Shown here: positions 16,679 through 54,058 of the stretch, in pieces
Layout of the letters: each line of letters begins with the position of its first letter
Numbering within the stretch: the stretch's first letter is position 1
Assembly (NCBI GenBank): GCA_964016885.1
Contig: OZ024753.1
Location: 28,582,001-28,646,000 of the forward strand
Direction: 5' to 3'
DNA from: Eledone cirrhosa
Lineage: Eukaryota
Length of the DNA stretch: 64,000 bases
Notes under the pieces: model-generated
Seen by the model: the letters and a program-made list of their open reading frames with translations, nothing else
Database searches by the model: none
Told to the model about the DNA's origin: nothing
Made by a program: the position numbers and the translations under genes

Positions 16679-16751
<73 letters not shown>

Positions 16752-16755
16752 ATAG

Positions 16756-17165
16756 ATTATGAAGAGAGAAGAAACATTAGATATAATTAGTAATAAGATA
16801 TATCATACCTAAACTGCTTAGCTCTGTTTCTTGACCGCTGTATCACGTGATTGACTCCCCCTCCACTTTTCGGGATTCTATCTCGCATCTTACGGACGTG
16901 TTTTGAAACCCTTAATGAGGTATCCTCTTGATAAGTCGGCAGACCTCGCATAATATGCCACGAAACTAGAGGGACTAGAGAAGCAGTTTAGGTATGATAT
17001 ATCTTATTACTAATTATATCTAATGTTTCTTCTCTCTTCATAATGTATTATATAGCTCTGATACTGAATCAATCTAATCCATTCAGATTGGTTTGTCCCA
17101 GTTATTCATAGAGCAACATCGGTTGAGGTTTGTACCACTAACTCAAGGATATATGTGGATATATT
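16756..17165 (+). mobile_element. PLE-type hairpin insertion (inverted arm, decayed HHR, tail) in (TA)n
   Basis: 16756-16819 is the reverse complement of 16981-17044. Contains a TTGATAA...TGCCAC-GAAA-CTAG relic; the tail has a GCTC...GAGC stem. Confidence 0.65.
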
Positions 17166-18492: not shown

Positions 18493-18664
18493 TAATATAG
18501 ATGAGATTCTACAGGACTAGAACTGTTTCATTCTTTAGATTTCTAAAGAATGAAACAGTTCTAGTCCTGTAGAATCTCATCTATATTAAAACTTTTATAC
18601 TCTGCTATGTATTGAGTACCTTACTTACTGTGGTTACCTCCGATTCAACCTGGAATAACTTACC

Positions 18665-18665
<1 letters not shown>
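18493..18665 (+). mobile_element. short PLE hairpin insertion (47-bp perfect arms plus tail)
   Basis: Perfect palindrome at 18493-18588 and tail ATACTC..GAGTACC...AACTTACCT. Related pieces at 11160-11205 and 53420-53490. Confidence 0.75.
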
Positions 18666-18697
<32 letters not shown>

Positions 18698-18727
18698 AGA
18701 TCAAAAGATGGTTAAAAGAGTTCCATG

Positions 18728-18798
18728 TATTTTATTATGCGCATTTCAAAAACAAATATCATCATACGATGACATTTGCGTTTTCGTCAGATAAAATA
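18728..18798 (-). ncRNA. type-I hammerhead ribozyme (inverted pLTR copy)
   Basis: Near-exact reverse complement of the motif at 22479-22548. Confidence 0.8.
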
Positions 18799-18907
18799 GG
18801 GAGACATGATATGAAGGTTAAAAAACACTTGTGAATGGTGCAGTTTTAAATCAACATATGAAAAGTAGTTTTAGATTGATGTGTGATATTGATTTTTCTT
18901 CTACAAC

Positions 18908-21314
18908 ATGGATTATTACAACATAACCACTTCAACTAAAGACATTCCTATACCTGGTAAATCTGAACTCACCAAACTTCTAATTGAAAAACTGACTCCT
19001 TTATGAGAAGGCTTAGATGGATAGCTTTTTTCTATGACCAGCGCCTAAAAGGGAACTTCTATACCAAGGAACATAACTTTCTCGATCATTTATTTAATTC
19101 TAGAAGAAATCCTCCTTCCAACAAAAATCTAGTGCAATTTGAGGAGGAGTTAACTAACATTATAAAAAATCTTAAATTCAAGAGAAACCCTTACAGAGGA
19201 CAAGAGCACCTTGTAAATCTCAAGAACACTATTTTAAACCAAAATTCCTCAAAAAATGTTTTAGTCCACTCCGACAAAACAAATAATTTATATGGTAATT
19301 CTAAGGATAACTATAACAACCTTATCCTTAAGGAACTTAGGAAAAAATATCGCAAAACCAACCATGATAATTTAGAATCCATAAACTTTGAAGCTTCTGA
19401 GATTATGTCAAAACTTGGCATCGGAAAAAAGACCGAACCATTCCTCCCAAGAACTCCGAGGATAAATCTCAAGGATCACAAAAACAACTTTCGTACTGAA
19501 CTACCTGTTAGACTAATCGTCCCCTCTAAATCTGATCTGGGGGTTGTTAGCAAAGCCATCTTGGATAGAATTATCCCACAGGTTCGTTCTAATTGCTCTA
19601 CTTCGAACTTAAATTTATGGTTTGGTACTTCTGAAGTGATTAGCTGGTTCAACAAATTGAATAAGAAAAACAAACAAAAATTTATTCAATTTGATATTGC
19701 CAGCTACTATTCTTCTATTTCGCCCTCACTTCTCAACAATGCTCTATCTTTCGCTTAGAAATATTTAGACATCACCACAGATGAACTTCACATCATTCTC
19801 ACCGCACGTAAAACCATCCTAGAGTTCAACAATGAATATTGGACCAGAGCTGATACCTCTAACAACTTTGACATCACAATGGGAGCATCCAATTCATCCC
19901 AATTGACAGATTTAATTGGTATCTTTATTTTGAACTCTTTGAATCGGAAAATTCCTCAACTTCGCGGTGGAATTTATCGTGACGATGGATTTTTTACTAT
20001 CTTAAATTGCAACATAGTTAACCTTAATATTATTAAGAACAATATACGTAATCTCTTTAACCAACATAACTTAAAAATTGAATTTTATAACAACATCAAA
20101 CTAGCTAATTTCTTGGATGTATCTCTTAATCTTGACACTGGCCTATATTACCCTTACCATAAAAACAATGAGAATCTAAATTATGTTAATTTTAAATCTA
20201 ACCACCCCACTAATATTAAGAATGCTATAGTTAGTAATATTTGAAAAAGAATATCCAACCTATCATCTAATAAAAACATCTTTGATGCTAACGCCAATTA
20301 CTATAATAATGCGCTTTCTAAAGCCGGTTATCCTGATAAAATCAAATATAGTAAAGAAACAAATTCTAGAAGATCTTACAGTAGTATAATTAATCATGAT
20401 CATTCCAATAACTTTAATAAAAGACCTAGATACAAAAACATAATCTGGTATAATGCTCCTTTCTCCATCTCTATTAATAATAATATTCCTAAATTACTCT
20501 TTAGTGCCTTAAATAAATGCTTCCCTCCCTCACATATCTATAGTAAAATATTTAACAAACACACTATAAAATTTTCCTATTCGACCTCCTCCAACATCTC
20601 CAACATTATCTCTAAAAACAACAATAAAATACTAAATACTAAATCTCTTCCTTCCAACACTGAATATCATAATAATAGTAATAGTACTCCCGACGTCATT
20701 GTTAACTCTAGGCAAATTTCTGCAAACCCAAATACAACGTCAAACGCAACTTCGTTAAATGTTCTTAATCCCAATCTAAATCAAGAAACTATTATTCCTA
20801 TCGTAAATAACTTCTCCAATCCAATTCCTTCTATAGATAACATTAGGTCACTTGTTAATAACTTTATTAATTTCTCTAATCACAATTGTAATTGCCCTGT
20901 TAAAAATAAATGTCCTCTCAACAACCATTGTCTTGAAAAAAACTTAATCTATGAATGTAAAGTTATAACTGACACCAATTCCTTTACCTATTTTGGCTCC
21001 ACTTCCACCTCCTTTAAAGCTCGTCTTTATAATCATCATTCATCTTTTAAATACCAACTTAAAAGAACCAAACGGCACTCTCAGAACTCATATGGTCCTT
21101 GAAAGACAAAAATATTAACTATAACATCTCTTGGAGGAAGGTTTGTTCTGCTTCTCCATACTTGAATGCCTCTCTATCCAAGATATGTAATCTCTGTTTA
21201 TGTGAGAAATTTACCATTATATCTAATTTAGATTCTATAATAAATAGATGCACTGACTTGTTTTCTCTCTACTTGCATAAATTCCACAGAACATTCCATA
21301 AAGTATACAGCTAA
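18908..21314 (+). pseudogene. PLE polyprotein (RT plus C-terminal GIY-YIG endonuclease), ~800 codons, four lesions
   Basis: Motifs FIQFDIASYYSSI, FDITMGASNSS, GIYRDDG, NFLDVSLNL, KSNHP, IIWYNAPFS, CNCPVKNKCPLNNHC, NLIYEC...TYFGST, FKARLYNH, CNLCLCEK. Frameshifts at ~18990 and ~21072; stops at 19756 and 20242. Confidence 0.92.
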
Positions 21315-22478
21315 TATCTAATACTTTACCAATTTAAAATCCTTTTTCTCAAAGGCACATATATATATATACATATATATTTCTTTAAAAATATACCCAT
21401 CTTTCTACCTTATTTCAATGTTATTTATTATATATTATATAATACTAGTTACTCATTCTATATCACTCCTATTTATCACTTCCCTTTCTTCCTTTTTTCC
21501 TTTTTTCTTTTAATTTCTAACCTCTAATCTGTACCTTTTCTTCCTAGATACTTCTCAATTCTCATTATTACTCACAATATATCCACTCTTCCTTCTCCCA
21601 TCCTATCACTGGCCATAAAATTTACTATTACCCTTTTAAATAATTTATAGTATCACCTTGAAAAATCCTTCGTAAACATAAACATTTTTTTTTACGTTAG
21701 ATTATTCATCCTCAATTCATTATTTTTTTCTCCCTTTCATGCTCATCTAACTTCTACTCATCACAACACATAATCAAACTAAAACCCTAACTAATCTCTT
21801 TTATTACATTATATTATTACCATTAGGAAATACTTCATAAACATACATATTTTGATGTTAAGGTCTTCTCCTTAAACACTATCTCCTTCTTTGCTTTCTG
21901 CGCTCATTTGTAAACAAACTATTTACATATATTAATTCATCCACTTTTCACAATATATCCTTAATTATATTACTATTTTTATATTTTTTTTAATAATACA
22001 TATCAACAATTTCTTTCCATCGCACATATTATTAAACCCTTCAATATTCAAACCTTAACTTAATATTATTCTTAATACATATTAACAATTTCTTTTCATC
22101 GCACATATTATTAAACCCTTCAATATACAAACCTTAATTTAACATTATTCTTAAATTTTTCTCTTCGTTAATTTTCAAATTCTTTTAATTTATATATTAT
22201 CTTCCAACGGTTTTTTAACCTCTCTCTGTAAAACAATATATTTTTCTCAATTATAAAAGCTATCTCTCTCTCTCTATCACCCATCTCTCCTCCTATCTCA
22301 TCCTTCCTTATTATACTCCTCCCCCTCCATTCTTTACTCTCATCTCCTCCTCTTTTTCATCCCCCCCCCTCAATTTTTTTCCCCAATATCACACATCAAT
22401 CTAAAACAACTTTTCATATGTTGATTTAAAACTGCACCATTCACAGGTGTTTTTTAACCTTCATATCATGTCTCTCCC

Positions 22479-22548
22479 TATTTTATCTGACGAAACGCAA
22501 ATGTCATCGCATGCTGATATTTGTTTTTGAAATGCGCATAATAAAATA
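22479..22548 (+). ncRNA. type-I hammerhead ribozyme in PLE pLTR
   Basis: Stem I TATTTTAT/ATAAAATA, CTGACGA, long stem II, GAAA, palindromic TGCGCA stem III, TA cleavage site. Confidence 0.88.
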
Positions 22549-22674
22549 CATGGAACTCTTTTAACCATCTTTTGATCTTATATATTATTTATACTCCAGT
22601 CCTACAAACTGTAGAGTGCTACTTATCCGATATCTGCATTGCTTTATTGTACTACAATAAAACTCACCTCCTAC

Positions 22675-22766
<92 letters not shown>

Positions 22767-22798
22767 TATTATATTATATATATGTATATATATATATA

Positions 22799-22878
<80 letters not shown>

Positions 22879-22916
22879 GAAATTACATGAATCAAAGTTC
22901 TGTTTAAACCATTTAT

Positions 22917-22965
22917 TCGCTTACAATTGTTTCTTCCAAACCGAGGTTTGGAGTCTTCGGAGCAA
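22917..22965 (-). ncRNA. type-I hammerhead ribozyme with CCGAAGA core
   Basis: Minus strand: TTGCT-CCGAAGA-C-TCCAAACC TC GGTTTGGA-A-GAAA-CAATTG-TA-AGCGA. Confidence 0.75.
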
Positions 22966-23409
22966 TTTTTCATTGATTTTTTACATACTTGACCTCCATT
23001 CCAACACAAGAGACATACAGAAACATATGTATATATTGATGCACAGGAGGTTGACATCCATTATAATATGGCAATTTACATTCAAAGATTAAGGTCATAT
23101 TAAAGAACAAAATTAAAGTTAAAATACAACAGTGGCAGTTTACGAAGATAAAGCAAGAGGATAGTTTGAAGTAGTTAGTGTATGCAATAGTTACACGTGG
23201 GGCATGAACGTGTGTCTTATTTATATAAGATTATAGTGCGGCAGGGTGTTATATGTAATACAAGCACTTTAAGCGGGCAATCAAGAGTATATATATATAT
23301 ATATGTATATGTATATATATATGTATATATATATATACATATATATGTGTGTGTGTGTATATATATATATATGTGTGTGTATATATATGTATGTAAATAT
23401 GTATATATG

Positions 23410-23440
<31 letters not shown>

Positions 23441-23443
23441 ATA

Positions 23444-23486
<43 letters not shown>

Positions 23487-24136
23487 ATATATATATATAT
23501 TGGTAAAAGGAAAAGAAAATGCTGACAAATTGTTCCCAGTGAAAAATAGTTTAATTAGGAATAAGTAAAAATTAGTAATAAGTATTGGTTAGTATTCAGT
23601 TTTGGTTTTAAGTTTTTACTGGTTGCACATTTCTAATGCTTTTCAAAAATAATTTTGAGATAGAGCGCCCGTGATGTTTGCTCTAATTAGATTAAATAAC
23701 TCCACCTCAGAAAAATATCTAAGGTCTGAGGTGGAGTTATTTAATTTTATCTGGGTACCTATTGATAAACACAGAAAAAGTTGATTAACTCACAGCTAAT
23801 TAGTTAATTATTTTACTATTATACCATCCTTTGTGAAACATGTTTGAAGTTTGAAGTTCTGACCGATCTGCGGAAAAAGTTTGTATTTTGAATTTTAAAC
23901 GTGTCTAGGTACCAAGGCTTTTTGCCCATAAGAGTCTGTGAGTATTGATTTATTATTTTTTAGATCGTACAGGCAGACTTTATGTTGTTGAATTAAGATA
24001 TTTTCACTCTAGCGATTTTATTAGTCAATTGCAACTAAAACATGTAAATGTTCATCAAATATTAATTTATACTGCTCAGAAGCGATTCTTAGAGCTGAAA
24101 TGATTGTAAATGACCCCATTGAGTCTAAACTCTAAG

Positions 24137-24226
<90 letters not shown>

Positions 24227-24275
24227 TACATACATACACATATATATATACATATATATATATACATACATATAT

Positions 24276-24882
24276 GGTGGCTGCCAACTCGTTTTCGAGT
24301 ACGGCCACTTCTTTATATCCATGTAGGAGAACCCCTACCGATGCTCTGAACGAGTGTGACTTTTTAGTCCAGCCAGCGACTTGAAAACTCTGGTACAAAC
24401 ACTACACTTGTGACAATTATTGACACATAGTGCTGGGCCCATGGTACCATGTACGACAAGTGCAGAGAGATCTCCAGATATAAAGCAATGCCTGTGCCAT
24501 GAAGCTTTTATAGTGAGCAAAGGCACTGCACAAAGCCAGTCCCACTCTCTTAACCAAGATGATATTTACCAAAAAGAAGAACAAGTCAACATCATTGGAT
24601 ACCATCAGGGTTGCAGGTGTTATATCAGAGTTTTCCTTCTCCTAGAATTCTGCCTTGACAAAGGCTAAGGGGTCATCTCTCCCGGTGATTTTGGATGGCC
24701 ATTGACTCTTAAGAGCTCCTTTGCCCTTTGACAGGTTTTGTTTTTAGTCCTGCAGGATGTCCAAAGTCACCCTACTCACTAAGAAACCTTGGTGGGGTTG
24801 CCAGTTTAGTCGCCAATGACCTGACCATGGGACAGGTTGTACTGGGATACATGTTACCAGTAGCACCAACTGGTGACCTGAC
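24276..24882 (-). mobile_element. ~600-bp bipartite non-autonomous RTE derivative
   Basis: RTE-like 5'UTR (GGCGACTAAACTGGCAACCCC, GGAGAAGGAAAACTCTGAT) fused to a C2H2 finger end HKCSVCTRVFKSLAGLKSHTRSEHR*. Near-identical copies at 39528 and 56296. Confidence 0.82.
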
Positions 24883-24928
24883 ATACATATATATATATAT
24901 ATATATACATACATACATATATATACAT

Positions 24929-24975
<47 letters not shown>

Positions 24976-25015
24976 CATCTAATGGTGTTTTCCCCTCCTT
25001 TATTCTTTACTTATA

Positions 25016-25081
<66 letters not shown>

Positions 25082-25084
25082 CAT

Positions 25085-25432
25085 GGAGGCACATAGCTTA
25101 GTGGTTAGAGCATTGGCCTTGCAATCGAAAGGTCGTGAGTTCAATTCTCAGACCAGGTGATGTGTTGTTTCCTTGAGCAAGACACTTTATTTCACATTGC
25201 TCCAGTTTACTCAACTGTAGAAATGAGATGATAGGGACTGGGGTCCCTATCATTCCACTGCAAAGTGGTCGTGGAGGTGCCACGGCAAAAAAGCACCCAG
25301 CACTCACTGTAAATGAGGTTGGTGTTAGGAAGGGCATCCAGCTGTAGAAATCAAGCCAGAATCAGTTCCCATCCCACCCTTGCAAGCAGGGAAAAGCGGA
25401 CGTAAAATGAAATGATGAATGAAATGAAATGA
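25085..25432 (+). mobile_element. family A SINE with RTE-LINE-derived tail (tail type 1)
   Basis: tRNA head (TAGCTTAGTGG, GAGTTCAATTCT), core CCTTGAGCAAGACACTTTA, and 3' end CCCACCCTTGCAAGCAGGGAAAAGCGGACGTAAAATG. Confidence 0.85.
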
Positions 25433-26340
25433 TACACACACACAATATATGTATATATATATATATATATATATAGATATAGATCATCAACTCTAGAGAG
25501 GTTTCTACTTTCTGTCTCCAACACTAGAGAGATTTCTATTTCCTGTCATCAACCACCTTACAGAATTAGTACAGTGGAGAAAATGTTTTGTGTCTTGTTT
25601 ACATTCTCAGTTCAAATCCCACCAAGGTCAACTTTGTCTTTCATCATCCGACGTCAGTAAAATAAAGTAAGAGTCAAGCATTGGGGTCAATTTATTGAAC
25701 TTTCCTCTCCCCTCAAAATCGTTTTGATTTTCCTTTATTTACTATATGCATGGCCTTCTTTAAATTACAAAATGGTGGTTGCATCACATTAAAAATTAAA
25801 GTCTTTACTTTAATTAACTGAAAATATTCACAATGATGTGTCCTCTAGTTATTATTCCATAACCATTTGAATTAACAAGTCACATTACTGAGGAAGAATA
25901 CCAAACATAACTAAGACTATATTATGTTAAAATGCTACACACTTTCATAACAATCTCTCAAGTTGTAAAGTTACTATAAATATTTTAATTAACAAACCCA
26001 ATTTTAGATATTTTCTGCTAAGTCCTTACAGGATGTTAAAAGTTAAAGGTTATGTAATATTTTCGTTTGACTTTGACAAATTTTATGGAGTAATTTAAAT
26101 TTTATAAAATCAATTGATTTTTACAGAAGACAAATATCAAAATGGAACCAAAATAGAAAAATAATGGCATTAAAAGTAATTTAGTTTTATAAATATTTTT
26201 AATATATGTGATGTTTGTTCTTTTGTTTGGACCATATTATTACATGTTTCTGCAGCACTTAGAATCTTACACAGAATGACAATTAATAATGGATTACTTC
26301 AGATGGCAAATATTTTCAGATTAAAGTAGAGATAAGTACA

Positions 26341-27225
26341 TATTGGTCTCCAAGTATCTAAACAGAGGTGACAAATTGGCAGAGTTGTTAGAACGTCAGA
26401 TAGAATGCTTTATGGTATTCGTTTTGGCTCTCTACTCTCTGAGTTCAAATTACGCCAGGGTCAAATTTACCTTTCATCCTTTCAAGGTCAATAAAAAAGG
26501 TACCAGTCTAGAACTGAGGTCGATTCTTCCTCTCTCTGGTAGAAACCTGTTGTACTCAGACCTGGAAAGGGATGGGCTCCGCCTGGCTTAAAATGCCCAA
26601 GAAATGCCATATATCAATACGGTGCCCCTACGACTCTATCATGAGTTCTGGGACCATACATACATGTACTTATTGGTCCTCAAGTATCTAAACATGGTGG
26701 CCAATTGGCAGAGTTGTTAGAACATCAGAAGTATTCATACCGACCCTCTACTCTCTCCGAGTTAAAATCCTGCTACGGTCAACTATGCCTTTCATCCAGT
26801 TAAGGTTGATAAAAAAAGTACTAGTCTTGCACTGGGGTCGATTTTTCTTCTATATCTCTTTGTCACTTCCTTTATATCACTCTCTCTATCCTTCTCTAGA
26901 AGAAATCTGCTATATTCAGACCTGGAGAACAGATGGGCTCTGCCTGGTTTAACCATTTAGCATTTACATTACTCTATATTTACTATTGTATTTCCACAGT
27001 AAAGGTTTTATCTCACATAATATCGAATCTATGAGATTTTCATATTATTTATTTTGAGAAGAATATCTTAACATCACTATGAGTGGCAAAGAGGTGAGAG
27101 AATTCTGACCAGGTATGGCCAGTTTAAATGCTATAGGGTTAAAAAAAATGCCCAAGAAACGTTGTATGTCAATGCAGTGCCCCTACGACTCCATCAGGAG
27201 TTATGGGACCATGTATACATACATC
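26341..27225 (+). repeat. tandem duplication of a family B SINE plus 3' extension unit
   Basis: TATTGGTC..CAAGTATCTAAACA..GG starts at 26341 and 26671. The second unit carries a piggyBac MITE. Confidence 0.7.
26953..27138 (+). mobile_element. piggyBac-type MITE
   Basis: TTAA|CCATTTAGCATTTA...TAAATGCTATAGGG|TTAA. Confidence 0.8.
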
Positions 27226-27910
27226 TGCACAGGCAAAAGTCAAACTAATTTAAGATTGGTCTAGTAGACAGTTGTATCTTTGTCTAGTAATCTTCTTCGA
27301 AAACATTTCAGTTAAAGTTGCTATGTGAATAAAAGCATCATTCTACTGAAAGATAATTTGTCTATCATAATCATTGCATAAGTTATTAATACTTTGTGAT
27401 TATTATTGGCCAATGATACTAAATATAATTCTATTTTGCTGAAAGAAAGAAAAACAGGTCAACATGGAAGAATTGCATGTTCTATTACCATACTGTATAT
27501 TTTGGTAAATGCATTGTACTGCCGTATACAAGTTGTTAAATAAATTTATGGCGCCACTAAGATGAGAGTAGACTTCATCAGAAGAGCAAATTTTCATTTG
27601 AAAAGAATAGAATCTGAAAATCTAATCATGAATGTCTTTTCAATAATCATTTGCCACATTTATTTTCTTTCAGCTAATACAAGCATTTCAATCTGTTGGG
27701 AGATAGGCCTAAGATTCATTCTCATTATTTTATTGACAGTATCGATAAAAGGTCGGATGGCATGCTTTGCAGCATAGAGTTACGTTCCTTTATGGTCTGA
27801 GTCCAAATCCCGTCAAGGTTAACTTTGCCTTTCATCCTTATGGGGTTGATAAAATAAAGTACCAGTAATGCACTGGGATAATTGCTGGACTTGAGCCAAA
27901 GGTAGAAACA

Positions 27911-27995
27911 ATTATTATTTTATTTAAGTCAATATTATTTTATTTAAGTCAATATTATTTTATTTAAGTCAATATTATTTTATTTAAGTCAATAT
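27911..27995. repeat. 20-bp minisatellite x4 (AATATTATTTTATTTAAGTC)
   Basis: Directly visible. Confidence 0.9.
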
Positions 27996-28164
27996 TTCTT
28001 TTTGCTGTTAAGCTTTGTCTGCCATGTCAAACCTTCACATCAATAATTTCTTTATAACAATCTTCGAGTAACTATCTTGGTCATCCTTTTATTTTCTTAT
28101 CGGGAACATTCCATGTACTTTTAAATTTATTGATTAGCTTCTTCACTTGCTGTCTTCAATTTAG

Positions 28165-28590
28165 TTTTCGTGCCAATCTTTACTTATGGTCATGAATGTT
28201 AGGTAATGACCAATAGAATATGATCGCAAATACAAGCGGCTGCAATGGGATTCCTCCATAGGGTCTTTGGAGTAATGTTATTCAATAAAGTGCGGAGATC
28301 AGAGAGTCACTCAAGGTGGAGCCGCTACTTCTCTGAATTGAGAGATCACAACTCCGATACTATGGGCATGTGGTTAGAATGTCTCAGGAAAGAATCGCTG
28401 GGCAGATTTTACAGGCAAAACCAGCCTGCAGGAGACCCAGGAGTAGACCCCAAGCAAGATGGTTGGATAACATCCATGAGCTTGGCTGGTCACACTTGGG
28501 GATCCGGCCAGATCAGGTGGAGATGGTTGCTTCTGACAGGACTCGCTGGAAGGAATCTGTCCCCACAACCCTCTCAGGAATAATTGAGCA
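28165..28590 (+). mobile_element. old RTE-clade (Rex3/Expander-like) 3' fragment
   Basis: LTYGHEC...QIQAAAMGFLHRV...IERSQLRYYGHVVRM...RPRSRPQARWLD...DRTRWK. Confidence 0.8.
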
Positions 28591-29084
28591 AAGAAGAAGC
28601 TTCTTCACAGAAACATCAGATGTTGGTATATTGTTACACTTTATTGTAATCTTACAACACAACTTCTATGTATGTATGTGAGGCCCTGTAACTACTGGGG
28701 ATGAAGTGGGGGGTGTCATAGGGACACCATAGTGACATAGGGCGTTTCTTGGGTAGTTTCAACCTGGTGAAGCCCATCATTCTCAAGGTTTGAGCAAAGC
28801 CAATTTCTTCTAGAGAAGAAGAGAGAGGCGGGGGGGGAATGACCCCATTACTGAACTGGCATTACAATGTAATCGAAAATAGCATGCAGGAGTTTTAACA
28901 AAAAGACAATCTAACTTAATAACAAATGTTTTATACATGTTATAAAGATCCTATTTATTTATATATCAGGTACGCTTTTTGAACCCTTTTTTATTATCAT
29001 TTTCCTTAGATATATATATATATATCATCATCATTTAACATCCTTATATATATATATACGCACACATATATATACATATACATA

Positions 29085-29424
29085 TTCATTCATTCATTCA
29101 TTCATTTCGTTTTACGTCCGCTTTTCCCTGCTTGCAAGGGTGAGACGGGAACTGATTCTGGCTTGATTTCTACAGCTAGATGCTCTTCCTAACACCAACC
29201 TCATTTACAGTGAGTGCTGGGTGCTTTTTTGCTGTGGCACCTCCACGACCACTCTACAGTGGAATGATATGGACCCCAGTCCCTATCATCTCATTTCTAA
29301 AGCTGAGTAAACTGGAGCAATGTGAAATAAAGTGTCTTGCTCAAGGAAACAACACATCACCCGGTCTGAGAATTGAACTCACAACCTTTCGATTGCAAGG
29401 CTCTAACCACTAAGCCATGTGCCT

Positions 29425-29428
<4 letters not shown>
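29085..29428 (-). mobile_element. family A SINE, tail type 1
   Basis: Close match to the reverse complement of 25085-25432. Confidence 0.85.
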
Positions 29429-29477
<49 letters not shown>

Positions 29478-30864
29478 TACATTTATATATACATAGAAAT
29501 GTTATGTACTGACTTTTTTCACATATTATTAAACGGATATTTTCGATTTTAACCTTCTTCTATTTTTTCTGTTACATCATTTATTATATATGTGTGTGTG
29601 TGTTTGAGTGTACTCGTGTGTGTTTGAGTGTGTATGTATATACATGCAAACATGCTTTACAAGGACAGAGTGACCCAGATTGCTGATAGAAAAATAAATA
29701 TTTAGATTCTTAAACTGACAGATTGAAAGCTGGAGTAGATTTTTGAAGTGGGTAGATGGATTAGGTGATGAATAGATATTTAGATGGATGCTGAGATAAC
29801 TTAGAGATATAATAGACAGTTAGTCATTTAGAAATAACAAATGTAAGACACACACCCAAATCAGAAATGAGAGGAGTAAAAGATAAGAGATCATCATCAT
29901 CGTCCATTTTTCCACGCTAGCATGGGTTTGATGAGTTTTCCTGTTGTGGGCAATGTCAGTTCAGGTGACCATGTCTTGTTCATACAGAACTGATTTTGGA
30001 TTGGTTTCTATGACTGGATGCCCTTCCTAACACCAACCTCATTTACTGTGTGTACTGGGTGCTTTTTGTTATGACTTCTACATGATCACTTTACAGTGTG
30101 TACTGGGTGCTTTTGTTGTGATGCCTACACGACCGCTTTACAGTGTGGACTGGTGCTTTTTGTCCTGGCACCTACATGACCACTTTACAGTGTGGACTAG
30201 GTGCTTTCTTTCATCAAAAAGAAGAGGAGAGAGAGAGACGGAGAGGTTTAACATAGAAGGACCAAAATATTGACATCTTAAGGTTTTTGTTAGTAATAGA
30301 AAATATATTTTCTTTCACAGGAAGGTCTTTGCTTGTACTGTCAATATTCTCATCTCTCCACAGGATGAGTATTGAAATCTACAAACTTCTACAAAATTTA
30401 TCTTTGAGTTGACTCAAGGATATTATTATACCATATATCAGTTTATTATACCTTATATCAGCTTACTAAATTAGTCTTGTGCTGAAGAAATAAATAATCA
30501 ATATCATTATTATCTATTCATATATGTATATATAATCTCTACCCAACAAATTATGCGCAAATCAATATTTCTTTTTTTACTGAAACTTATAATTTACATA
30601 ATATGCCTACAATTAAATTTTTCTTATTTTCTGAAAGCATAATTTACATGGCATTCATATAATTAACTTTCTTTATTTTGAATGCTACATTGAAAGTATG
30701 TGTATGGCCAAGTCATTAAAATAGTAGATAGGGAACCAAGAAATGTGGCAAGTTAGGAATAATTTGCTTCTCTAAGCAGTAACAGTAGTTGCAATGACGT
30801 AGTAAAAGTTACCCAGAGGAGATTGTGGTTGCTGTTGTTGGTATTTTTATTGTTATTTAGCCCA

Positions 30865-31068
30865 TCCAGTAGAGCATTGGACAACATGCCTTTATGGCAT
30901 AGATTTATGCCCGTTTACATTCTGAGTTCCAATCCCGTCGAGGTTAGCTTTGCCTTTCATCCTTATGGGATCAATAAAATAAAGTACCAGTAATGCATTG
31001 AGGTCGATTTAATCAACTTTCTCCTCTCCCAAAATTGGTGGCCTTGTACCTAAATCAGAAACCGTTAT
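30865..31068 (+). mobile_element. family B SINE
   Basis: CTTTGCCTTTCATCCTTATGGGATCAATAAAATAAAGTACCAG. Other copies at ~12270, 25600, 27735, 33305, 38300(-), 40445, 45115, 46495, 47950, 50995(-) and 61580. Confidence 0.8.
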
Positions 31069-31191
31069 TTAGCTCCATCTAAATGAAGATAGAACAAAAA
31101 AACATAGGCCATATCAGTTAAGTTCTAGTTTGTGTTTGACATAAATAGCAACTGCTATCAATTCTCTTTGTGTGGAGAAACATAAGGTTGC

Positions 31192-31238
31192 ATGTCTTCT
31201 GATGAAAAGCCAACTAGTCTTGAAATGCATAAAGACAT
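31192..31238 (+). ncRNA. minimal type-I hammerhead ribozyme
   Basis: ATGTCTT-CTGATGA-AAAG CCAACTAGT CTT-GAAA-TGCA-TA-AAGACAT: perfect 7-bp stem I and palindromic stem III. Confidence 0.8.
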
Positions 31239-31599
31239 TTTATGTTTTTCTGTGTATGAAGAATATAACAAAAGTGTGCTCATCATTATCATCATTATCC
31301 GTTCATTTTCCGTACTTGTTTATTCACAGCCAGATTTATAATTAAAGACTGTATTTATATCTAAATGAAATTTATCTTAGATCTTCTAAGATACTCTGTG
31401 TTGTGCATGAATCTTTTTCTTTATAAATAGAAACATCATTTACAACATAATGTTGAAATTCATCTTGTATTCTTCATCTGTCCTTAATCAAATAGATGTG
31501 TTAATGAACAAGAATCCTTATCAGAACTAATTCCAAAATAATTCCCAGTGTTCTTCATACCAGCATATAATATCAACACTATTATCTTTTATTATATAT

Positions 31600-31630
<31 letters not shown>

Positions 31631-31696
31631 TATCTATATCTATCTATCTATATCTATATATATATAATGCCTTTATGGTAAATAAAGAAATCTATA

Positions 31697-31762
<66 letters not shown>

Positions 31763-31763
<1 letters not shown>

Positions 31764-32327
31764 CGTTTCTGAATTTGTTTAGCAAGATTCTTTATCTGAA
31801 AACGTGTGTTGAAACCGATATTGTTATACTTTGGGAGGGTCATGTTGCCAATAAGAAACACACGCACCAGTGCTTTCACTTCAATTTATTATAATAAATT
31901 TATAAATTTAGGAATTTATAAATTTCCGGTTGGTTGGTTCCACAACCAGATGGTTGTTTATATATTGTCAAAGTTCTTTCGTCACACATTCTGTGACCTC
32001 TTCAGTGACTGGGGATTCTTTTCTTTGTTTTTTGTGCTCTCCTTTGTTCTGTCCTACGCCATCTTGTTTTTGACACACAAAATCAAGATGGCGTAGGACA
32101 GAACAAAGGAGAGCACAAAAAACAAAGAAAAGAATCCCCAGTCACTGAAGAGGTCACAGAATGTGTGACGAAAGAACTTTGACAATATATAAACAACCAT
32201 CTGGTTGTGGAACCAACCAACCGGAAATTTATAAATTCCTAAATTTATAAATTTATATAATAAATTGAAGTGAAAGCAACTGGTGCGTGTGTTTCTTATT
32301 GGCAACATGACCCTCCCAAAGTATAAC
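31763..32327 (-). mobile_element. PLE pLTR hairpin insertion (~245-bp arms plus 60-bp tail)
   Basis: 31823-32066 is the reverse complement of 32084-32327; tail at 31763-31822; (TA)n flanks. Relatives at 38058-38225, 38750-38907, 44281-44381 and 54056-54390. Confidence 0.85.
32141..32183 (+). ncRNA. minimal type-I hammerhead ribozyme (mirror copy on - at 31967-32009)
   Basis: GTCA-CTGAAGA-G-GTCACA GAATG TGTGAC-GAAA-GAAC-TT-TGAC. Confidence 0.75.
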
Positions 32328-32371
32328 TATATCTATATATATATCTATATATATATATATATATATATATA

Positions 32372-32695
32372 TGACCTCTGGCATCACGCAGTAATACAGA
32401 GTACCCGACCTCCCATGGGTACAAGCTGAAGCATATAGACAATATGCCCCCACACCCTCCCACTGCAAAGTGGTTGTGAAGGGGCCACAGAAAAAATCAC
32501 CCAGCACTTACTGTAAAGGAGGTTGGTGTTAGGAAGGGCATCCAGCTGTAGAAATCAAGCCAAAATCAGTTCCTGTATCAGCAAGGCATGGTCAGCCGAC
32601 CAGACACTGCCCACAACAGGACAACCTGTCTAACCCATGCTAGCATGGAAGAACGGACGTAAAACGGTGATGATGATGATGATGATGATGATGAT
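32372..32695 (+). mobile_element. RTE-tailed SINE-like repeat (family C)
   Basis: TTGGTGTTAGGAAGGGCATCCAGC...ACCCATGCTAGCATGGAAGAACGGACGTAAAACG(ATG)n. Copies at 29890-30210(-), 35410-35560(-), 49110-49550, 51150-51405 and 62685-62880. Confidence 0.75.
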
Positions 32696-33464
32696 ATATA
32701 TGTATATGTGTGTGTGTATATATATATATATATATGTAAAAGGTAAACAGAAATAATAAACATAACAAAACAAATGGCACAGAACATGGATGAAATATAT
32801 TAGTTTAATGCTTGAAATAGCAGGAATGATCTGTCTACTAGTAAAGATACTATACACATCTGAATTAACAAAGGATGTTTAAGAGTTAAGAATTCCAGAT
32901 AGATTCTCAGTCTCAATGGTTGTCTATTTTATTAGACTATACTTTGATAATTATTTGAACATAATCACTGTAGCAATAATTAATTGTAAGCTATTTACAT
33001 GTGATTAGTTTCTACAACAAATTAGGTTATAGTCTGTTGTTATATTTGTATTTTTTTAACTTTATATTTGAAGTGATTTCTTTTTTTCTTTTTCTTTTTC
33101 TTTTTCTTTTTCTTTTTCTTTTTCTTTTTCTTTTTCTTTTTCTTTTTCTTTTTCTTCTGAATAGTAGTGATGGCTATTGAGGCTAGTATAAAAATCATTT
33201 CTGCCTTTTGGCATGGCTGTATGTTTAAAAGGTTTGGTTCACAACCATGTGGTTCTAGATTCAATCCTGTGATATCATGGGTAATTATCTTCAACTATCT
33301 TCTACTAGGCAGTCAATTTGACAGAACTGTTAGAGTGTTAGATATTTCTTCTGGGTTTTTGTGTTCTGAGTTCAAATCCTGCCAAGTTCCACTTTGCCTC
33401 TCATCTTTTCAATCTGTGCTCAATAAAGTACCAGGTCAGTGCTGTTGCAGCTCCTCTCGTTTAA

Positions 33465-33684
33465 CCCTTTACCATTTACATTAGTGTATATATACTATTT
33501 TATTTTCACGGTAAATATTTTAAACATATAATTATCTCACATAATATCAAATCTATGAGATTTTGATATTGTTTATTTTGAGAACAATACCTTAAAGTAA
33601 GTAAGAGCAACTGGTTATAGCCAGTTTCAATAGAAAGTGGTGAGAGAATTCTGGCCGGATATGGCTAGTTTAAATACTAAAGGG
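33465..33684 (+). mobile_element. piggyBac-type MITE
   Basis: TTAA|CCCTTTACCATTTA...TAAATACTAAAGGG|TTAA. Confidence 0.8.
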
Positions 33685-34188
33685 TTAAATCGAATGAGAG
33701 GAAGGAGGTGTTTTCTTTTCTTTTTAGTTAAATTCTGCTTGTAGTTTAATCAATAAGTAATAATTAAAATCAGTCTTATAATCTTGTCAATCTGTTTGAT
33801 ACAATGAAACCATTATATCTTTGACAAAACCAAATGAAAGAATTTTTTTCGAAATGTCTAGCTGTTTTACAGCTTCCCTTGTTTCCTCTTTTCTTTTTCA
33901 TTTTCTTACCCATAATCTGCCTCCCATATTTTTATTTCATTTTATGTTTTACCCCTTTTTATTTTTTATTTTTTTTATTTTTACTTGTCTCATTAGCTCT
34001 TTGTGATTACCAACTATAAGGAGTACCCGGCCCTTCTCCTAGTTTGTCATGGATTACTAGCTCTATACGGATGTTTAAATTGAAAATAAATAAATGAATA
34101 AATAAATAAATTACTCAATCAATGAACCAAATGAACTGTTGTCCTGTCACTGGTGAGTAGTAAAACCTTTCCTCTTATCCTTCTGAAG

Positions 34189-34389
34189 CAGGCATATCAA
34201 ACTGAAGGCCCTCTGAGGTCCACATGGGTCACATGTGTTGTCTGAGGGCCACACATGACAACTAATTGTGCACATTACAACTCATTTAAAAAAATGTTTA
34301 TAGTACAACGATAAAACATGCTCGTGCTGTAAAAACCTTTGTGTGGGCCACAGGTGTGCTTGTAAAGGGCTACATGTTTGACATGCCTG
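34189..34389. mobile_element. hAT (Charlie-like) MITE
   Basis: TIRs CAGGCATATCAAAC / GTTTGACATGCCTG. Confidence 0.75.
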
Positions 34390-34679
34390 TTTTATAACAT
34401 TTGACTTTGGATATCTTATCTTCAATTTGTATTAAATCTATCCAATTCATCTTCTCATCTTGTATATTGTTGTCCACATGTTCCATTGTGGCATGTTATA
34501 TTCTCTCAGTGGTTTTTACTTTTATTTGATGGTTTTGGAAAAAAATTCTCAAAAATTCTATTTCTTTACAATGACTGCTTTTTACTCAATTGTTTGACAA
34601 TTCTGTTTGGCCATGATTTTAGTGAACAGATTCAATGTGGCACTTAAAAGACTTGTAGATCGATAGTTTATTTGTGTGT

Positions 34680-34930
34680 ATGATGATGATGTTGATGATG
34701 ATAACAACAATGATGATGATGAGGAGGACAATGATGATAATGGTGATGATGATAATGATGACAATGAGGATGATAATGATGATGATGATGATGACAATAA
34801 TGATGATGATGATGACAATGAAGATGATAATGATGATGATGATGATGATGATGATGAAGACCACAATGATGACGACGATGATGATGATGATGATAAAAAT
34901 GACAGTGACAAAGATGATGACAATGACAAT
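34680..34930. repeat. (GAT)n microsatellite
   Basis: Directly visible; source of the poly-D/M/S/I ORFs. Confidence 0.95.
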
Positions 34931-34946
34931 GTCGACGAAAATAATT

Positions 34947-35131
34947 GTTTCTACTTTTGGCACAAGGCCAGCAATTGCCCAGTGTATTACTGGTACTTTA
35001 TTTTATCGACCCCCGTAAGGATGAAAGGCAAAGTTAACCTCGGCGGGATTTGAACTCAGAATGGCAAGGGCCGTAACTCTATGTATCAAAGCATGGCATC
35101 CGACCCTCTACCGATACTGCCAATTCACCGC
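34947..35131 (-). mobile_element. family B SINE with 19-bp TSD
   Basis: CAATGTCGACGAAAATAAT at 34928-34946 and 35132-35150. Confidence 0.85.
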
Positions 35132-35766
35132 CAATGTCGACGAAAATAATGATGATAATGATGAAGAGGAAAATATTCTACTGTTGCTATTATGATGATG
35201 ATAATAAAAACCATTCAGATGGTAATGTTTATTATGATAAAGATGTATAAAAAGTAATGCTTAAAAATTCATCAAAATTTCTCATACCATCTTCAAAGAT
35301 TGTCTTTTTTTCATTTTCACCCAAGGAATTAAATAAATTTGATTGACATGTTAATAGGATTTTAGTTATTTATTTATGTATTTATTTATAAATTTAGTTG
35401 TTTATATATTTTCATCATCATCATCGTGACCGTTTTATATCCATTTTTCCATGTTAGCATGGGTTAGACAAGTTGTCCTGTTGTGGGCAATGTCAGGTCA
35501 GGTGATCATGTCTTGCTCATACAGAACTGATTTTGGCTTGGATTCTACAGCTGGATGTGAAGCTGTGTGAAATTTACAACAGGTTTTATTTTATTATTAT
35601 TTTTTTTTTTTTTTTGATAACATAAAAATTTTAAAAATAAATTTATTGTGCTGGACTTGTGTAGTTAAATGCATTATTATCATTATTATTTTTATCAAGA
35701 TATAAATTTACATGACTTCCGTCCGTCACACAATATATGTGTATGTGTGTGTGTGTGTGTGTGTGT

Positions 35767-36010
35767 GTAAAAGGAAGGAAGGGGATGGTGAAAAAACTGT
35801 AGCAAAAACAGTGGCTGACGTTCAATTTGCTACGCTATGTGTGAGTGTATGTGTATGTCTGTGTGTAAATGTATGTGTGTGTAATTGTGTGAATGTATGT
35901 ATGTAAAAGGAAGGAAGGGGATGGTGAAAAAAGCTATAGCAAAACAGCGGCAGGCGTTCTATTTGCTACGCTGTGTGTGAGTGTATGTGTGTGTGTGTTT
36001 GTGTGAATGT
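35767..36010. repeat. ~137-bp tandem duplication
   Basis: GTAAAAGGAAGGAAGGGGATGGTGAAAAAA at 35767 and 35903. Confidence 0.8.
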
Positions 36011-36522
36011 ATATGTGTATTTATGTGAATGTATGTCTGTGAGTGTGTATTTTTGTAAGTGTGTCTGTATTTACGCATTTATATTTATATACTCATACAT
36101 ATAATTCTATGCATATGCACATACACACACATACACACACATATACACATACGCGTCAGCGTGTCAAAAAAAATTCTAGTATTTAAAAACAAAAAAATTA
36201 TTATTTGTTTTATTTTTGCCCTGAGTTAATATTATCATGTTGTAACTTCCTTCAGCTGAGAAATACGATAATGTTAGCTTGCTGTTGATTAATTTCCATA
36301 TGAAATCAGACAACATAATATTGAAATTTAAACAGAAAAATAATGTCAGATATAAATTTACTAAATTGAAAAAAAAATATAAAACAAAAAATTAAGACAA
36401 CAACAACAGCAAAAATGACAACAAATATTTATTTGCTATCAGGGTCCATTCCTTCTGTACAATCAGTACAAAATATGTTGCAAAAGTGACTATGGGGTAT
36501 TATGTATATATACACACACACA

Positions 36523-36566
<44 letters not shown>

Positions 36567-36570
<4 letters not shown>

Positions 36571-38012
36571 GGAGGTGAGTTTTATTGTAGTACAATAAAG
36601 CAATGCAGATATAGGATAAGAAGCACTCTACAAACTTAAAAGAACTAACACTGCTCTCTCAGAACTCATATGGTCCTTAAAAGACAAAAACATTAAATAT
36701 ACCATCTTTTGGAAGAAGATTTCTTCTGCATCCTCATACTTGAACAGCTCTCTATCTAAAATCTGTAATCTCTGCCTAAATGAAAAATTTACCATTATCT
36801 CTAACCTAGATTCTATAATAAATAGACGCACAGATTTGTTTTCTATCTGCCTGCATAAATTCCATAGAAGTTTTCACAAAGTATACAGTTAATATTCAAT
36901 TCTTTATCAATTTAGAATCTTTTCTCAAAGGCACATATACATACACCTCTTTAAAATATACCCATCTACCTTACTTTAAAGGGCATTATACACTCTATAA
37001 TACTTGTTTACTCATTACCCTCATTCTATCTTCACCTTGTAAAATCATAACATATACTCTTGTTGTTTTTGACGTTAGAATATTCATCCGCAATCATTAT
37101 TATTTTTTCTCTCTATCATAAATCTTTTTAATCTCAATTTCATCCTTAATTTATTATTTTTTTCTCCCCATCAACGAACTCATTATTAATACATATTAAC
37201 TCTTTATTCGCATATATTATCAATTCAATCAATATACAAACTTTAACTTCACATTATTTTTCTCAAATCCTTCTACACACAAACCTTAATAATTTTTCTC
37301 TTCGTTAATTTTGAAATTGCCACAATACATACATTTCTTTTTTTGACGTTAGAATATTCATCCACAATTATTATTTTTTTCTCTCTATCTTCATACATAA
37401 TTTCCCTTCGTTAATTTTCAAATTCCTTTAATTTATACATTATCTTCCAACGGTTCTCAACCTCTCTATGTTAAAACAATATATCTTTTTCTCAGTTATA
37501 AAAACTCTCTCTTTCTCTCTATCACCCATCTCTCCCTCTCCACCTTCACTCTCATCTCCTCCCCCTTTTTTTCATCCTTTCCACCCCCCCTCCCTAAATA
37601 AAATATTTTTTCCTCGCACATATCCTCCCTTCGTTAATTTTCAAAATGTTTAATTTATACAGTATCTTCCAACGGTTTTCAACCTCTCTATATAAAAAAT
37701 ATATCTCCTCTCAGTTATAAAAACTATCTCTTTCTCTCTATCACCCATCTCTCCCTCTCATCTCCTTCCCTTTTCATCCTTTCCACCCCCCCCCTCTCTA
37801 AATAAAATATTTTTTTCCCAATATCACACATCAATCTAAAACCACTTTTCATATGTTGATTTAAAACTGCACTATCCACAAGTGTTTTTTAGCCTTCATA
37901 TCATGTTCTCCTGTTTTATCTGATGAAAACACAAATATTATTGCATGATGATGTTTGTTTTTGAAATGCGCATAATAAAATACATGGAACTCCTTTAACC
38001 ATCTTTTGATCT

Positions 38013-38018
<6 letters not shown>
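36567..38018 (+). mobile_element. 5'-truncated copy of the 18689 PLE family, with the tail inverted at the 5' end
   Basis: 36567-36632 is the reverse complement of tail ~22611-22675. Then the EN C-terminus (KRTNTALSELIWSLKDK...CNLCLNEK), 3'UTR and a pLTR ending without a tail in (TA)n. Confidence 0.9.
37912..37982 (+). ncRNA. type-I hammerhead ribozyme
   Basis: TGTTTTAT-CTGATGA-stem II-GAAA-TGCGCA-TA-ATAAAATA. Confidence 0.85.
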
Positions 38019-38058
<40 letters not shown>

Positions 38059-38608
38059 GTCATACTTTGGGAGGGTCATGTTGCCAATAAGAAACACATG
38101 CACCAGTTGCTTTCACTTCAATTTATTATATATTTATGACATATATTATATTATTAAGTATGACAATATCGGTTTCAACACACGATTTCAGATAAAGAAT
38201 CTTGCTAAACAAATTCAGAAACGAAATATATATATAATGGTTTCTATATAAGAAACCATTATATTTATAAATATATTTATATATATATATATATGAGGGA
38301 GGGGAAAGTTGATTAAATCGACCCCAGTGCGTGACTGGTACTTTATTTTATCGACCCCCGTAAGGATGAAAGGCAAAGTTAACCTCGGCGGGACTTGAAC
38401 TCAGATAGTAAAGGACCACTGTTGAGTAGAGACGTGCGTTTCGCTATTGATCAGCACAAGGTTTGATCTGTGTCGGTCTTGCCCGACTCTGCAATCAAAA
38501 GCTTGTTGGACCTTTGTTGTGGTATATACAATATATATATATCCACCCGGAACCTGAACTGATATGGTCTGGTTTCTGGGTATGTCACTATTTATAAAAC
38601 AAATTTAG

Positions 38609-38670: not shown

Positions 38671-38932
38671 AATATGGTTTTATAAATATAGTTTCCATAT
38701 ATTAATATCATTGTTATATATATACTTATATATATACATATATATATATTGTTATACTTGGGGAGGGTCATATTTGTGTAATATTGCCAGAATTAATAAC
38801 AGAACACACTCACTGTTTGGTTGGTTTTCGCTTCTCGCTGTCTTTTATATCGGTAATCTAACTTACTCGGTCCTCAATGTTGCCATGACTGACTAATTCA
38901 TCGCCGCTATATATATATATATATATATATAT

Positions 38933-39390
38933 ACAATATTAAATAAATGGAAAACTATATTTATAAAACCATATTTATTTCATTATATATATTTCGGGGA
39001 TATCATATTAACAATATGCTATGCCTTCATCAGACAAAATACAATATAAACAGTTTTATAGATAAATATATTCGACATACCGTAATAAACATCAACTTCA
39101 TTTGGAGAGGTTTACTGCTAGCGTAAACCTCTCCAAATGAAGTTGATGTTTATTACGGTATGTCGAATATATTTATCTATAAAACTGTTTATATTGTATT
39201 TTGTCTGATGAAGGCATAGCATATTGTTAATATGATATCCCCAAAATATATATAATGAAATAAATATGGTTTTATAAATATAGTTTTCCATTTATTTAAT
39301 ATTGTAAATATACTCCAAATATTTGTCGAGTGCTTTTATATCAGTTATAAATATTTACTAGTTGTAACCCAACAATTTTAAATATAACTT

Positions 39391-39394
<4 letters not shown>
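38933..39394 (+). mobile_element. PLE pLTR hairpin insertion (183-bp arms, 7-nt loop, tail) with HHR in both arms
   Basis: 38933-39115 is the reverse complement of 39123-39305. CTGATGA at 39205; the left arm keeps GAAA-TATATA-TA on the minus strand; tail ATACTC...GAGTGC. Confidence 0.85.

Positions 39395-39456
<62 letters not shown>

Positions 39457-44030: not shown

Positions 44031-44033
<3 letters not shown>
42150..44033 (+). mobile_element. 1.9-kb palindromic PLE-derived insertion (~780-bp arms, ~240-bp spacer, 75-bp tail)
   Basis: 42150-42941 is the reverse complement of 43181-43958 with few substitutions and indels. HHR near the outer ends; tail at 43959-44033; (TA)n flanks. Confidence 0.88.
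43834..43907 (+). ncRNA. canonical type-I hammerhead ribozyme (mirror copy on - at 42201-42274)
   Basis: GCTGT-CTGATGA-TGAC.GACACT..CACAC..GTGTG..AGTGTCGTCA-TT-GAAA-TATATA-TC-ACAGC; predicted cleavage after C43902. Confidence 0.9.
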
Positions 44034-53816: not shown

Positions 53817-53817
<1 letters not shown>

Positions 53818-54021
53818 CGAAGGAATTGTGGTAAGGAACCAGATGGACCATAACACACCAGAGTACTCAATCCTTAGGGTAGTAGAGTGGGAAATAGGAA
53901 AAGAAATGACCCCGACGGCAGAGCTCAAGCCATTTCGACGGCTATTTCTGGACTAAATTCAATTTAGTTCAGAAATAGCCGTCGAAATGGCTTGAACTCT
54001 GTTGTCGGGGTCATACCTTTT

Positions 54022-54026: not shown

Positions 54027-54058
<32 letters not shown>

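Follow-up and report, generated by a model that had tools for sequence, protein, structure and literature searches.

Head-to-head insertions of Penelope-like elements (PLEs), the retroelements closest to telomerase, in (TA)n repeats probably arise by twin priming, in Hydra-clade and other PLEs alike: both ends of the cut target would prime cDNA, at two fixed sites that bound the element's tail. This reading comes from a 64,000-nt stretch of the Eledone cirrhosa genome (contig OZ024753.1 of assembly GCA_964016885.1, positions 28,582,001 to 28,646,000, forward strand; hereafter the window, within which all coordinates are counted), together with 78 related loci found by scanning metagenome contigs (hereafter the relatives) and four public sequencing runs. 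The window holds two copies of one PLE with reciprocal ends. An original prediction, made from the letters of the window, had proposed two-ended priming from (TA)n on the strength of these two copies. We find it the best explanation of the head-to-head inserts, given the structure of copy 2, a rule of unlike ends and the clustering of 3′ ends, though not of all copies.

Copy 1 (18689-22674) and its surroundings are built as follows.

18665..18688, no strand: (TA)n target between the hairpin insert at 18493 and copy 1, flanking the former on its right
18689..18891, minus: inverted tail-less arm of copy 1, a pseudo-long terminal repeat (pLTR) with a hammerhead core; outer end at site 1
18892..18907, plus: 16-nt remnant of the 5′ leader, where the long arm of copy 1 stops
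18908..21314, plus: decayed open reading frame (ORF) for reverse transcriptase (RT) and GIY-YIG, with motifs RLRWI, SDKT, YRDD, CxCx5C, YFGST and CxxC
21315..22383, plus: 3′ untranslated region, pyrimidine-rich, with partial matches to copy 2
22384..22593, plus: right pLTR, the stretch repeated in the inverted arm
22479..22548, plus: hammerhead-type motif (8-bp stem I, CTGAnGA and GAAA cores, self-complementary 8-nt stem III)
22579..22593, plus: site 1, a TA-like tract at the pLTR/tail boundary
22593..22617, plus: hairpin 1 at the start of the tail, ACTC...GAGT (GCTC...GAGC in relatives), predicted from pairing
22594..22674, plus: tail, 81 nt; its end is site 2, common to copy 2
22675..22878, no strand: (TA)n target right of copy 1

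The order of parts is thus (TA)n, inverted tail-less pLTR, ORF, pLTR, tail and (TA)n, as had been predicted. The left arm is the reverse complement of 22593..22384, with 198 of 202 aligned bases identical, and its outer end meets (TA)n at the tract 22579-22593. Because the element itself is TA-like over this tract, the pLTR/tail boundary cannot be placed to one base. The body begins at 18892, 16 nt before the ATG at 18908; in relatives the corresponding point is the 3′ edge of a second hairpin (hairpin 2), mostly 12-26 nt before the ATG. Both pLTRs of copy 1 agree at sites that vary in the family and have in common a C at 22438, a position at which T is found in almost every read; this argues that both came from one source. 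The copy is dead, with two stops (19756 and 20242) and two frame shifts (near 18985 and 21070) in its ORF.

On its motifs, domain order and target, copy 1 is a decayed Hydra-clade PLE, as the clade is defined in section 11 of PMC8557442 (Craig et al. 2021). Residues 28-701 of intact relatives align in order over 18988-21278 (tblastn), and the best protein match of the ORF is from Argonauta hians (43%). YRDD is followed by CxCx5C and then YFGST, the order of an RT with a C-terminal GIY-YIG domain and no N-terminal endonuclease. The RWK-type motif reads RLRWI in copy 1, differing in its third residue (consensus RWK in 23 aligned relatives), and the change from DKG to DKT appears as SDKT, with D-K-T invariant in 23/23 relatives. 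The linker holds CNCPVKNKC (CxCx5C) and CNLC (CxxC), and CxH is CLH in copy 2 and YLH in copy 1; CxCx5C, CxxC and CxH are present in 21, 22 and 22 of the 23 relatives, respectively. A hammerhead core with stem I and a palindromic stem III, whose cleavage is putative, was found by motif scan at 22479-22548 and also in copy 2; Rfam at its gathering threshold did not detect the former. Pfam returned no RT or GIY-YIG match on pieces of the copy 1 ORF, where it gave two weak unrelated ones, and zero matches on four relatives. (TA)n flanks both ends of both copies.

According to the available text of PMC8557442, the Hydra clade has in common with copies 1 and 2 the RWx, DKT, CxCx5C, CxxC and CxH motifs and the C-terminal GIY-YIG domain, as well as the pLTR hammerhead, the (TA)n target, the inverted 5′-truncated copy and a tail at either end; its File S1 lists an octopus member, Hydra-1_Obim, with (TA)n as target. 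Copy 1 is longer than the usual Hydra element, at 3.78 kb for the body against about <3 kb, with a long 3′ region and an Asn-rich linker; the same text calls these elements 'generally short', so length is a tendency. The tail, too, is longer (81 nt in copy 1, 30-40 in the Hydra clade). The Asn-rich insertion spans ~80 codons (20640-20880) between RT and the CxCx5C linker and resembles the N-rich inserts of Adineta vaga Penelopes in the part of PMC3846280 available to us.

Copy 2 has the reciprocal form.

36568..36632, minus: inverted tail-only arm of copy 2 (22674..22610), which stops inside hairpin 1
36629..38017, plus: long arm of copy 2 (ORF end, 3′ region, pLTR); ends at site 1

Its inverted arm is identical to 22674..22610 at 63 of 65 positions. 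The long arm matches 21052..22593 piecewise (ORF end 220/260, pLTR 185/199) and runs into (TA)n at 38018-38055, at the same boundary as the inverted arm of copy 1. No TA lies between the arms at their joint, where ~4 nt are common to both; on the element the arms do not overlap, leaving a 16-nt gap at site 1. The sequence of the inverted arm is missing from the long arm, which therefore did not serve as its template. As judged from its sequence, copy 2 is no simple fold-back and matches the geometry of twin priming in the L1 retrotransposon. The predicted mirror form therefore stands as to the inverted tail and a body ending at the shared boundary; its ends are 36568 and 38017, and the inverted arm covers part of the tail, namely 65 of its 81 bases at the distal end.

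The same asymmetry recurs in other two-armed inserts of the window.

16752..17150, plus: two-armed insert of another family, with a tail-less left arm to ~16825, a spacer and a right arm at 16977-17054; the tail, ~95 nt, ends in degenerate TA
18493..18664, plus: perfect hairpin insert with 47-bp arms and a 2-nt loop; tail with the ACTC/GAGT hairpin
31764..32333, minus: hairpin insert with 256-bp arms and a 5-nt loop, tail on the left; family without the ACTC/GAGT hairpin
38056..38225, plus: second copy of the 31764 family in reciprocal form, with a 75-nt tail-less arm, AT-rich filler and the tail plus 12 nt
38745..38907, plus: tail-less arm and a ~13-16 nt stub resembling the tail end of 54055-54390 (weak match)
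38934..39396, plus: hairpin insert with ~190-bp arms and a loop of up to 7 nt; tail with the ACTC/GAGT hairpin
42150..44033, plus: large two-armed insert with 655-bp arms, a hammerhead in each, and a 75-nt tail
53817..54026, minus: hairpin insert with 66-bp arms 91% alike and a 1-nt loop, tail on the left
54055..54390, plus: probable two-armed insert with a tail-less left arm and a tailed right end; inner joint blurred
54406..54462, plus: short two-armed insert of the 53817 family, its tailed arm ending inside the hairpin loop (off-site)

Each of the 193 TA runs with four or more units in the window was taken as the starting point of an outward palindrome scan, which found seven palindromes of PLE type. 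All seven carry 53-166 extra bases on one side and none is symmetric, a one-sidedness that exceeds chance; the symmetric matches of the scan were opposite SINE copies, TA runs inside arms, low-complexity matches and TA-centred duplications of flanks, and were set aside. Homology added copy 2 and 38056-38225 as clear inserts, and those at 38745, 54055 and 54406 as weaker ones. A tailed end is paired with a tail-less end in all nine clear two-armed inserts, for which the chance would be 0.5^9 = 0.002 if ends chose freely. The six hairpin inserts named in the original prediction are real and have one tail-less end each, and belong to several other families than that of copies 1 and 2. At 31763 and 53817, however, the positions given as tail-less are tailed ends of minus-strand inserts, whose tail-less arms end at ~32328-32333 (31764) and 54023-54026 (53817). 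Several insert arms carry outward-facing hammerhead motifs, and TA runs gather more than one insertion: the 18493 insert and copy 1 share one run, copy 2 and the 38056 insert another. Further tail-less ends of families related to the 38934 insert lie at 38549-38716 and 62344-62460, with no partner arm identified.

We then asked of the relatives where such elements end. A hairpin lies upstream of the ORF in 36 of the 42 loci with enough upstream sequence, and 22 of these 42 have two hairpin copies 45-74 nt apart, compared with 1/4200 shuffles and 0/454 ORF windows. In the relatives GAGC is paired with GCTC 118 times and with ACTC five times, whereas six window tails have the A-U form of this outer pair; in the window GAGT is paired with ACTC in 8/8 cases having a partner, two of them probably unrelated. 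Because the minimum-energy fold of the copy 1 tail prefers an inner stem and does not form ACTC/GAGT, the case for this pairing is the exchange of G-C for A-U between lineages.

The 78 downstream regions yielded 29 3′ ends, seven of which were dropped (six matches to wrong references and one reference without a hairpin), leaving 22 scored, several from the same families. Sixteen of the 22 lie at -4 to +7 nt from a hairpin start, and two more, judged by eye, reach TA at one of the sites. Use of the two sites is roughly equal (site 1 eight times, site 2 ten times), and both are used within single families (L028/L033 and L044/L047). This clustering at two homologous points, each with a hairpin immediately 3′ of it, indicates that the tail is the unit between two homologous signals. 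Of 26 non-redundant loci, 17 have a TA tract of 4 nt or more in front of hairpin 1 and 12 have one in front of hairpin 2, against 2/26 for a control stretch; shuffles gave means of 8.3 and 6.5 and maxima of 17 and 12. The tract is missing in several relatives.

Both kinds of inverted arm recur as well: tail-only in L002 and L072, tail-less in L027 and L059. L059 has the arrangement of copy 1 with both hairpins kept, its arms overlapping by ~20 nt. Sense-orientation 5′ ends joined to flank lie mostly at or inside a hairpin. The contigs of the relatives were assembled from short reads, from which inverted repeats are lost and in which ends of different copies can be joined; we accordingly did not accept the direct monomers L033, L045 and L047 as single insertions, since such contigs can fuse different copies. 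An antisense 5′ splice site, seen by eye near tail ends in several window families, was also discarded, being unenriched in the relatives (4/26 against 13% of shuffles). Some ends fall at the hammerhead rather than at a hairpin: sense 5′ ends lie 7-10 nt upstream of its core (L032:1426, L034:2280, L002 ~765), and the 3′ ends of L018 and L020 lie inside it. The ribozyme may be an additional stop point.

For the family of copies 1 and 2 itself, we compared four public runs (X1, X4, X6 and X9) with 22392-22676 (285 nt, the tail end lying at the edge of this stretch). Junctions are taken from the best-supported loose ends listed, beside which there were 192 further rows. Among those listed, (TA)n follows 22593 in 53 contigs of X1, 2 contigs of X4 and 274 reads of X9. 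Another loose end lies at 22573, in 34 contigs of X1, where TA is reached ~14 nt later, and in 149 X9 reads that are mixed; it probably represents this boundary as it looks in a diverged subfamily. Opposite-strand joints, among those listed, lie at 22606 (X1) and at 22581 and 22645 (X9), and to judge by the lengths of their sides they would fit head-to-head short tailed arms. Variable sites are fewer in the tail than in the pLTR among the top rows listed. Read depth from pLTR to tail falls in X1, by about twofold, and falls in X4 as well, and does not in X6 or X9; depth is not copy number, and we did not use it as evidence.

In the mechanism that we propose, the endonuclease would cut both strands of (TA)n. 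As this repeat is self-complementary, both 3′ ends would offer the same primer, able to pair with a TA-like tract at either site; at site 1, the tract 22579-22593 is a microhomology between the target end and the presumed internal priming site. The template would probably be one terminally redundant RNA, tandem or circular. For copy 2, the cDNA primed at the tail end would have halted after 65 nt within hairpin 1, the expected seat of the second primer or of its enzyme, and that primed at site 1 would have extended for ~1.4 kb. For copy 1, the tail-end cDNA would have crossed an entire unit before stopping near hairpin 2 of the next unit upstream, and the site-1 cDNA would have been primed on the upstream pLTR and run ~200 nt; copy 1 would fit twin-priming geometry if its RNA bore pLTR and tail at both ends. 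The two cDNA ends would then be joined through microhomology. The shared alleles of the copy 1 arms and the absence of like-ended pairs from the window favour one RNA, two from one locus being possible. Twin priming would be an insertion route, though not the sole one.

Several observations weigh against this mechanism or narrow its reach. The steps of cutting, priming, stalling and joining have been deduced from finished insertions. Four of the nine clear inserts (18493, 31764, 38934 and 53817) are perfect hairpins with loops of 1-7 nt; the window also holds single-armed tail-less copies with no visible partner (11155, 44285 and 45642), a solo tail at 53421, an insert that ends off-site inside its tail (54406-54462) and a family, that of 31764, that obeys the unlike-ends rule without the hairpin. 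Hairpin 2 of the copy 1 family is absent from the window, and within the family of copies 1 and 2, site 2 is seen in these two copies alone. In the reads, X6 has no TA loose end at the boundary among those listed, and both X9 joints share the partner 22416, so that they may be one locus and a deletion derivative. Among the relatives, four of the 22 scoreable 3′ ends (L018, L020, L024 and L053) and the outer end of L072 are off-site, and about 12 sense-orientation 5′ joints go straight to flank, against four inverted ones (by eye). The RT start sites of Poseidon_Ac, a PLE of another clade, are not homologous to its target, so pairing with TA may not be required. The original prediction allowed two junction coordinates and no more, each belonging to one end and the two being oppositely oriented; in this strict form it does not survive the off-site 3′ ends, the 54406-54462 insert, the single-armed copies and the direct sense 5′ joints.

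Twin priming could even be a programmed route, in which a protein dimer would sit on two tandem hairpins of a tandem or circular RNA, both strands of (TA)n would be cut, and cDNA would start before each hairpin; the tail would be the spacer between the two binding sites of the enzyme, and the stops of the two cDNAs would set every PLE shape so far described. We put this forward tentatively, as a possibility to which we give less than even weight. If true, it would cover Hydra-clade, and perhaps all endonuclease-bearing, Penelope elements.

The perfect hairpins are what a fold-back would directly produce: one cDNA from the tail end copies itself back to the TA-like boundary and joins the other TA end, lopsided forms like that of copy 2 then arising by later deletion of the centre, or, in a variant, the RNA primes itself, as has been proposed for an antisense template. 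Arms sharing alleles would follow, self-priming is the published reading of junction palindromes in the available text of PMC3846280, and the X9 joints that share 22416 could be a deletion pair. Yet the short arms of copy 2 and L072 are sequence absent from their long arms, and the inverted arm of copy 1 is no copy of the adjoining 5′ end. The inner ends of short tailed arms lie within ~20 nt of site 1 (copy 2, 38056, 54406, X1 22606, X9 22581, L002 and L072), where random deletion would not gather them, and although long arms also end at site 1, the window scan contains zero palindromes with two tail-less ends. We regard fold-back as an unlikely source of the head-to-head inserts.

Alternatively, the GIY-YIG endonuclease could cut tandem or palindromic DNA at two AT-rich tracts, guided by the hairpins, the cut ends then being joined to (TA)n. 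The available text of PMC8557442 describes inverted copies and ascribes the tail 'at either end' to such endonuclease-mediated resolution, and Poseidon_Ac does cut an AT-rich site in its own ORF-pLTR junction (PMC11167929). Sense 5′ ends also lie at or in hairpins (L009, L013, L026, L028, L033, L045 and L047), an outcome also expected from RT stalling on tandem or circular RNA. Cutting alone does not give head-to-head arms that stop in hairpin 1, however, and the genomic ends of Poseidon_Ac coincide with its measured RT start sites (PMC11167929); resolution as the general explanation strikes us as quite improbable. Finally, that copy 2 is two independent adjacent insertions and the hairpins are chance pairs or DNA-transposon-like elements is highly implausible, even though TA runs in the window do collect insertions and the tail of copy 2 is nearer to copy 1 (97%) than its pLTR is (93%): the arms of copy 2 have no TA between them and share ~4 nt, its form recurs in 38056, L002, L072 and the read joints, the top rows of the reads list fewer variable sites for the tail, and hammerhead motifs face outward in several arms. 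One of the two cases that the original prediction had named as its refutation is thus unlikely.

Much of what twin priming of PLEs would require is already in print. In vitro, Poseidon_Ac cuts and extends both target strands, and its reverse transcription begins at two sites, which delimit the tail and lie next to a stem-loop (PMC11167929, Frangieh et al. 2024). It shares with the copies described here an AT-rich target, two tail-bounding sites and, under the proposed mechanism, extension of both strands, and it is a predicted dimer; it differs in clade and in the lack of target homology at its start sites, whereas the Hydra sites often have TA-like tracts. The main text of PMC11167929 does not tie the two sites to two DNA ends or to inverted insertions. 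Nor is a pairing rule, a tail-only inverted arm or a hairpin signal described in the available parts of PMC8557442.

Twin and dual priming of L1 is described in PMC2837659, as far as its available text goes, with two target-end primers, head-to-head arms and internal deletion. Copy 2 resembles such insertions in the last two respects, L059 with its overlap corresponds to the form that has a small internal duplication, and the first arm of L1 can also be very short. L1 uses its poly(A) tail as the first site and, as the second, an internal match that varies; in the PLEs described here neither site varies, both lie within the element, and a repeated hairpin marks them. L1 insertions have target duplications, which are unreadable within (TA)n. 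For Pen2a of A. vaga and its relatives, PMC3846280 (Arkhipova et al. 2013) in its available part reports that the inverted pLTR is accompanied by a tail on one side and proposes self-priming on an antisense template, a mechanism that does not give the non-overlapping arms of copy 2. The available parts of PMC8969392 and PMC13282606 held nothing further on mechanism.

Each ingredient is therefore published: the inverted pLTR, a tail that may sit at either end, the pair of RT start sites, the cutting of both strands with their extension, and twin priming in L1. Our literature search (subscription papers, figures and most supplements lay outside it) brought up no paper in which twin priming is invoked for Penelope elements or the hairpins are described, and none that joins these ingredients into one Penelope model; what is gained is a synthesis with good support rather than a new system. 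The completion of PLE integration and the inverted pLTR with a one-sided tail are stated as open in PMC11167929 and in the available text of PMC8557442. Twin priming would offer a testable account of this long-described shape, and the reciprocal pair, the unlike-ends rule and the two hairpin-marked sites make PLE integration directly testable in the existing in vitro system. It would also account for a densely packed class of hairpins flanked by TA, which one might take for miniature DNA transposons.

The window contains other repeats. Inverted duplications of ~80-100 nt centred on a (TA)n run occur at 41998-44225, where they enclose the 42150 insert, and at 44416-44575; they possibly reflect fold-back repair at a self-complementary repeat, perhaps at insertion. 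The stretch 12987-13949 resembles a miniature inverted-repeat transposable element (MITE), its AT-rich interior lying between perfect terminal inverted repeats of 216 bp, and a 207-bp palindrome without TA flanks (59613-59819) is related to a repeat at 54514-54711. A degenerate CAC/CACAGG tandem array of 3.7 kb (3851-7618), probably a satellite, has stop-free frames of >1100 codons. Other PLE-derived families are the likely source of additional hammerhead-like motifs and of a repeated family whose terminal TTTACCTTTT is followed by (TA)n or (CA)n, at 31191-31236, 16384-16683 and 55860-55970, and 15372-15572 (minus) has a weak match to the N terminus of a Hydra-clade protein, as an older fragment. 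tRNA-headed short interspersed elements (SINEs) start at TA runs at 25085-25444, 29089-29426, 54477-54735 and 58686-58915; the tRNA-like head of the first gives the sole Rfam match in the window (tRNA, 25094-25151).

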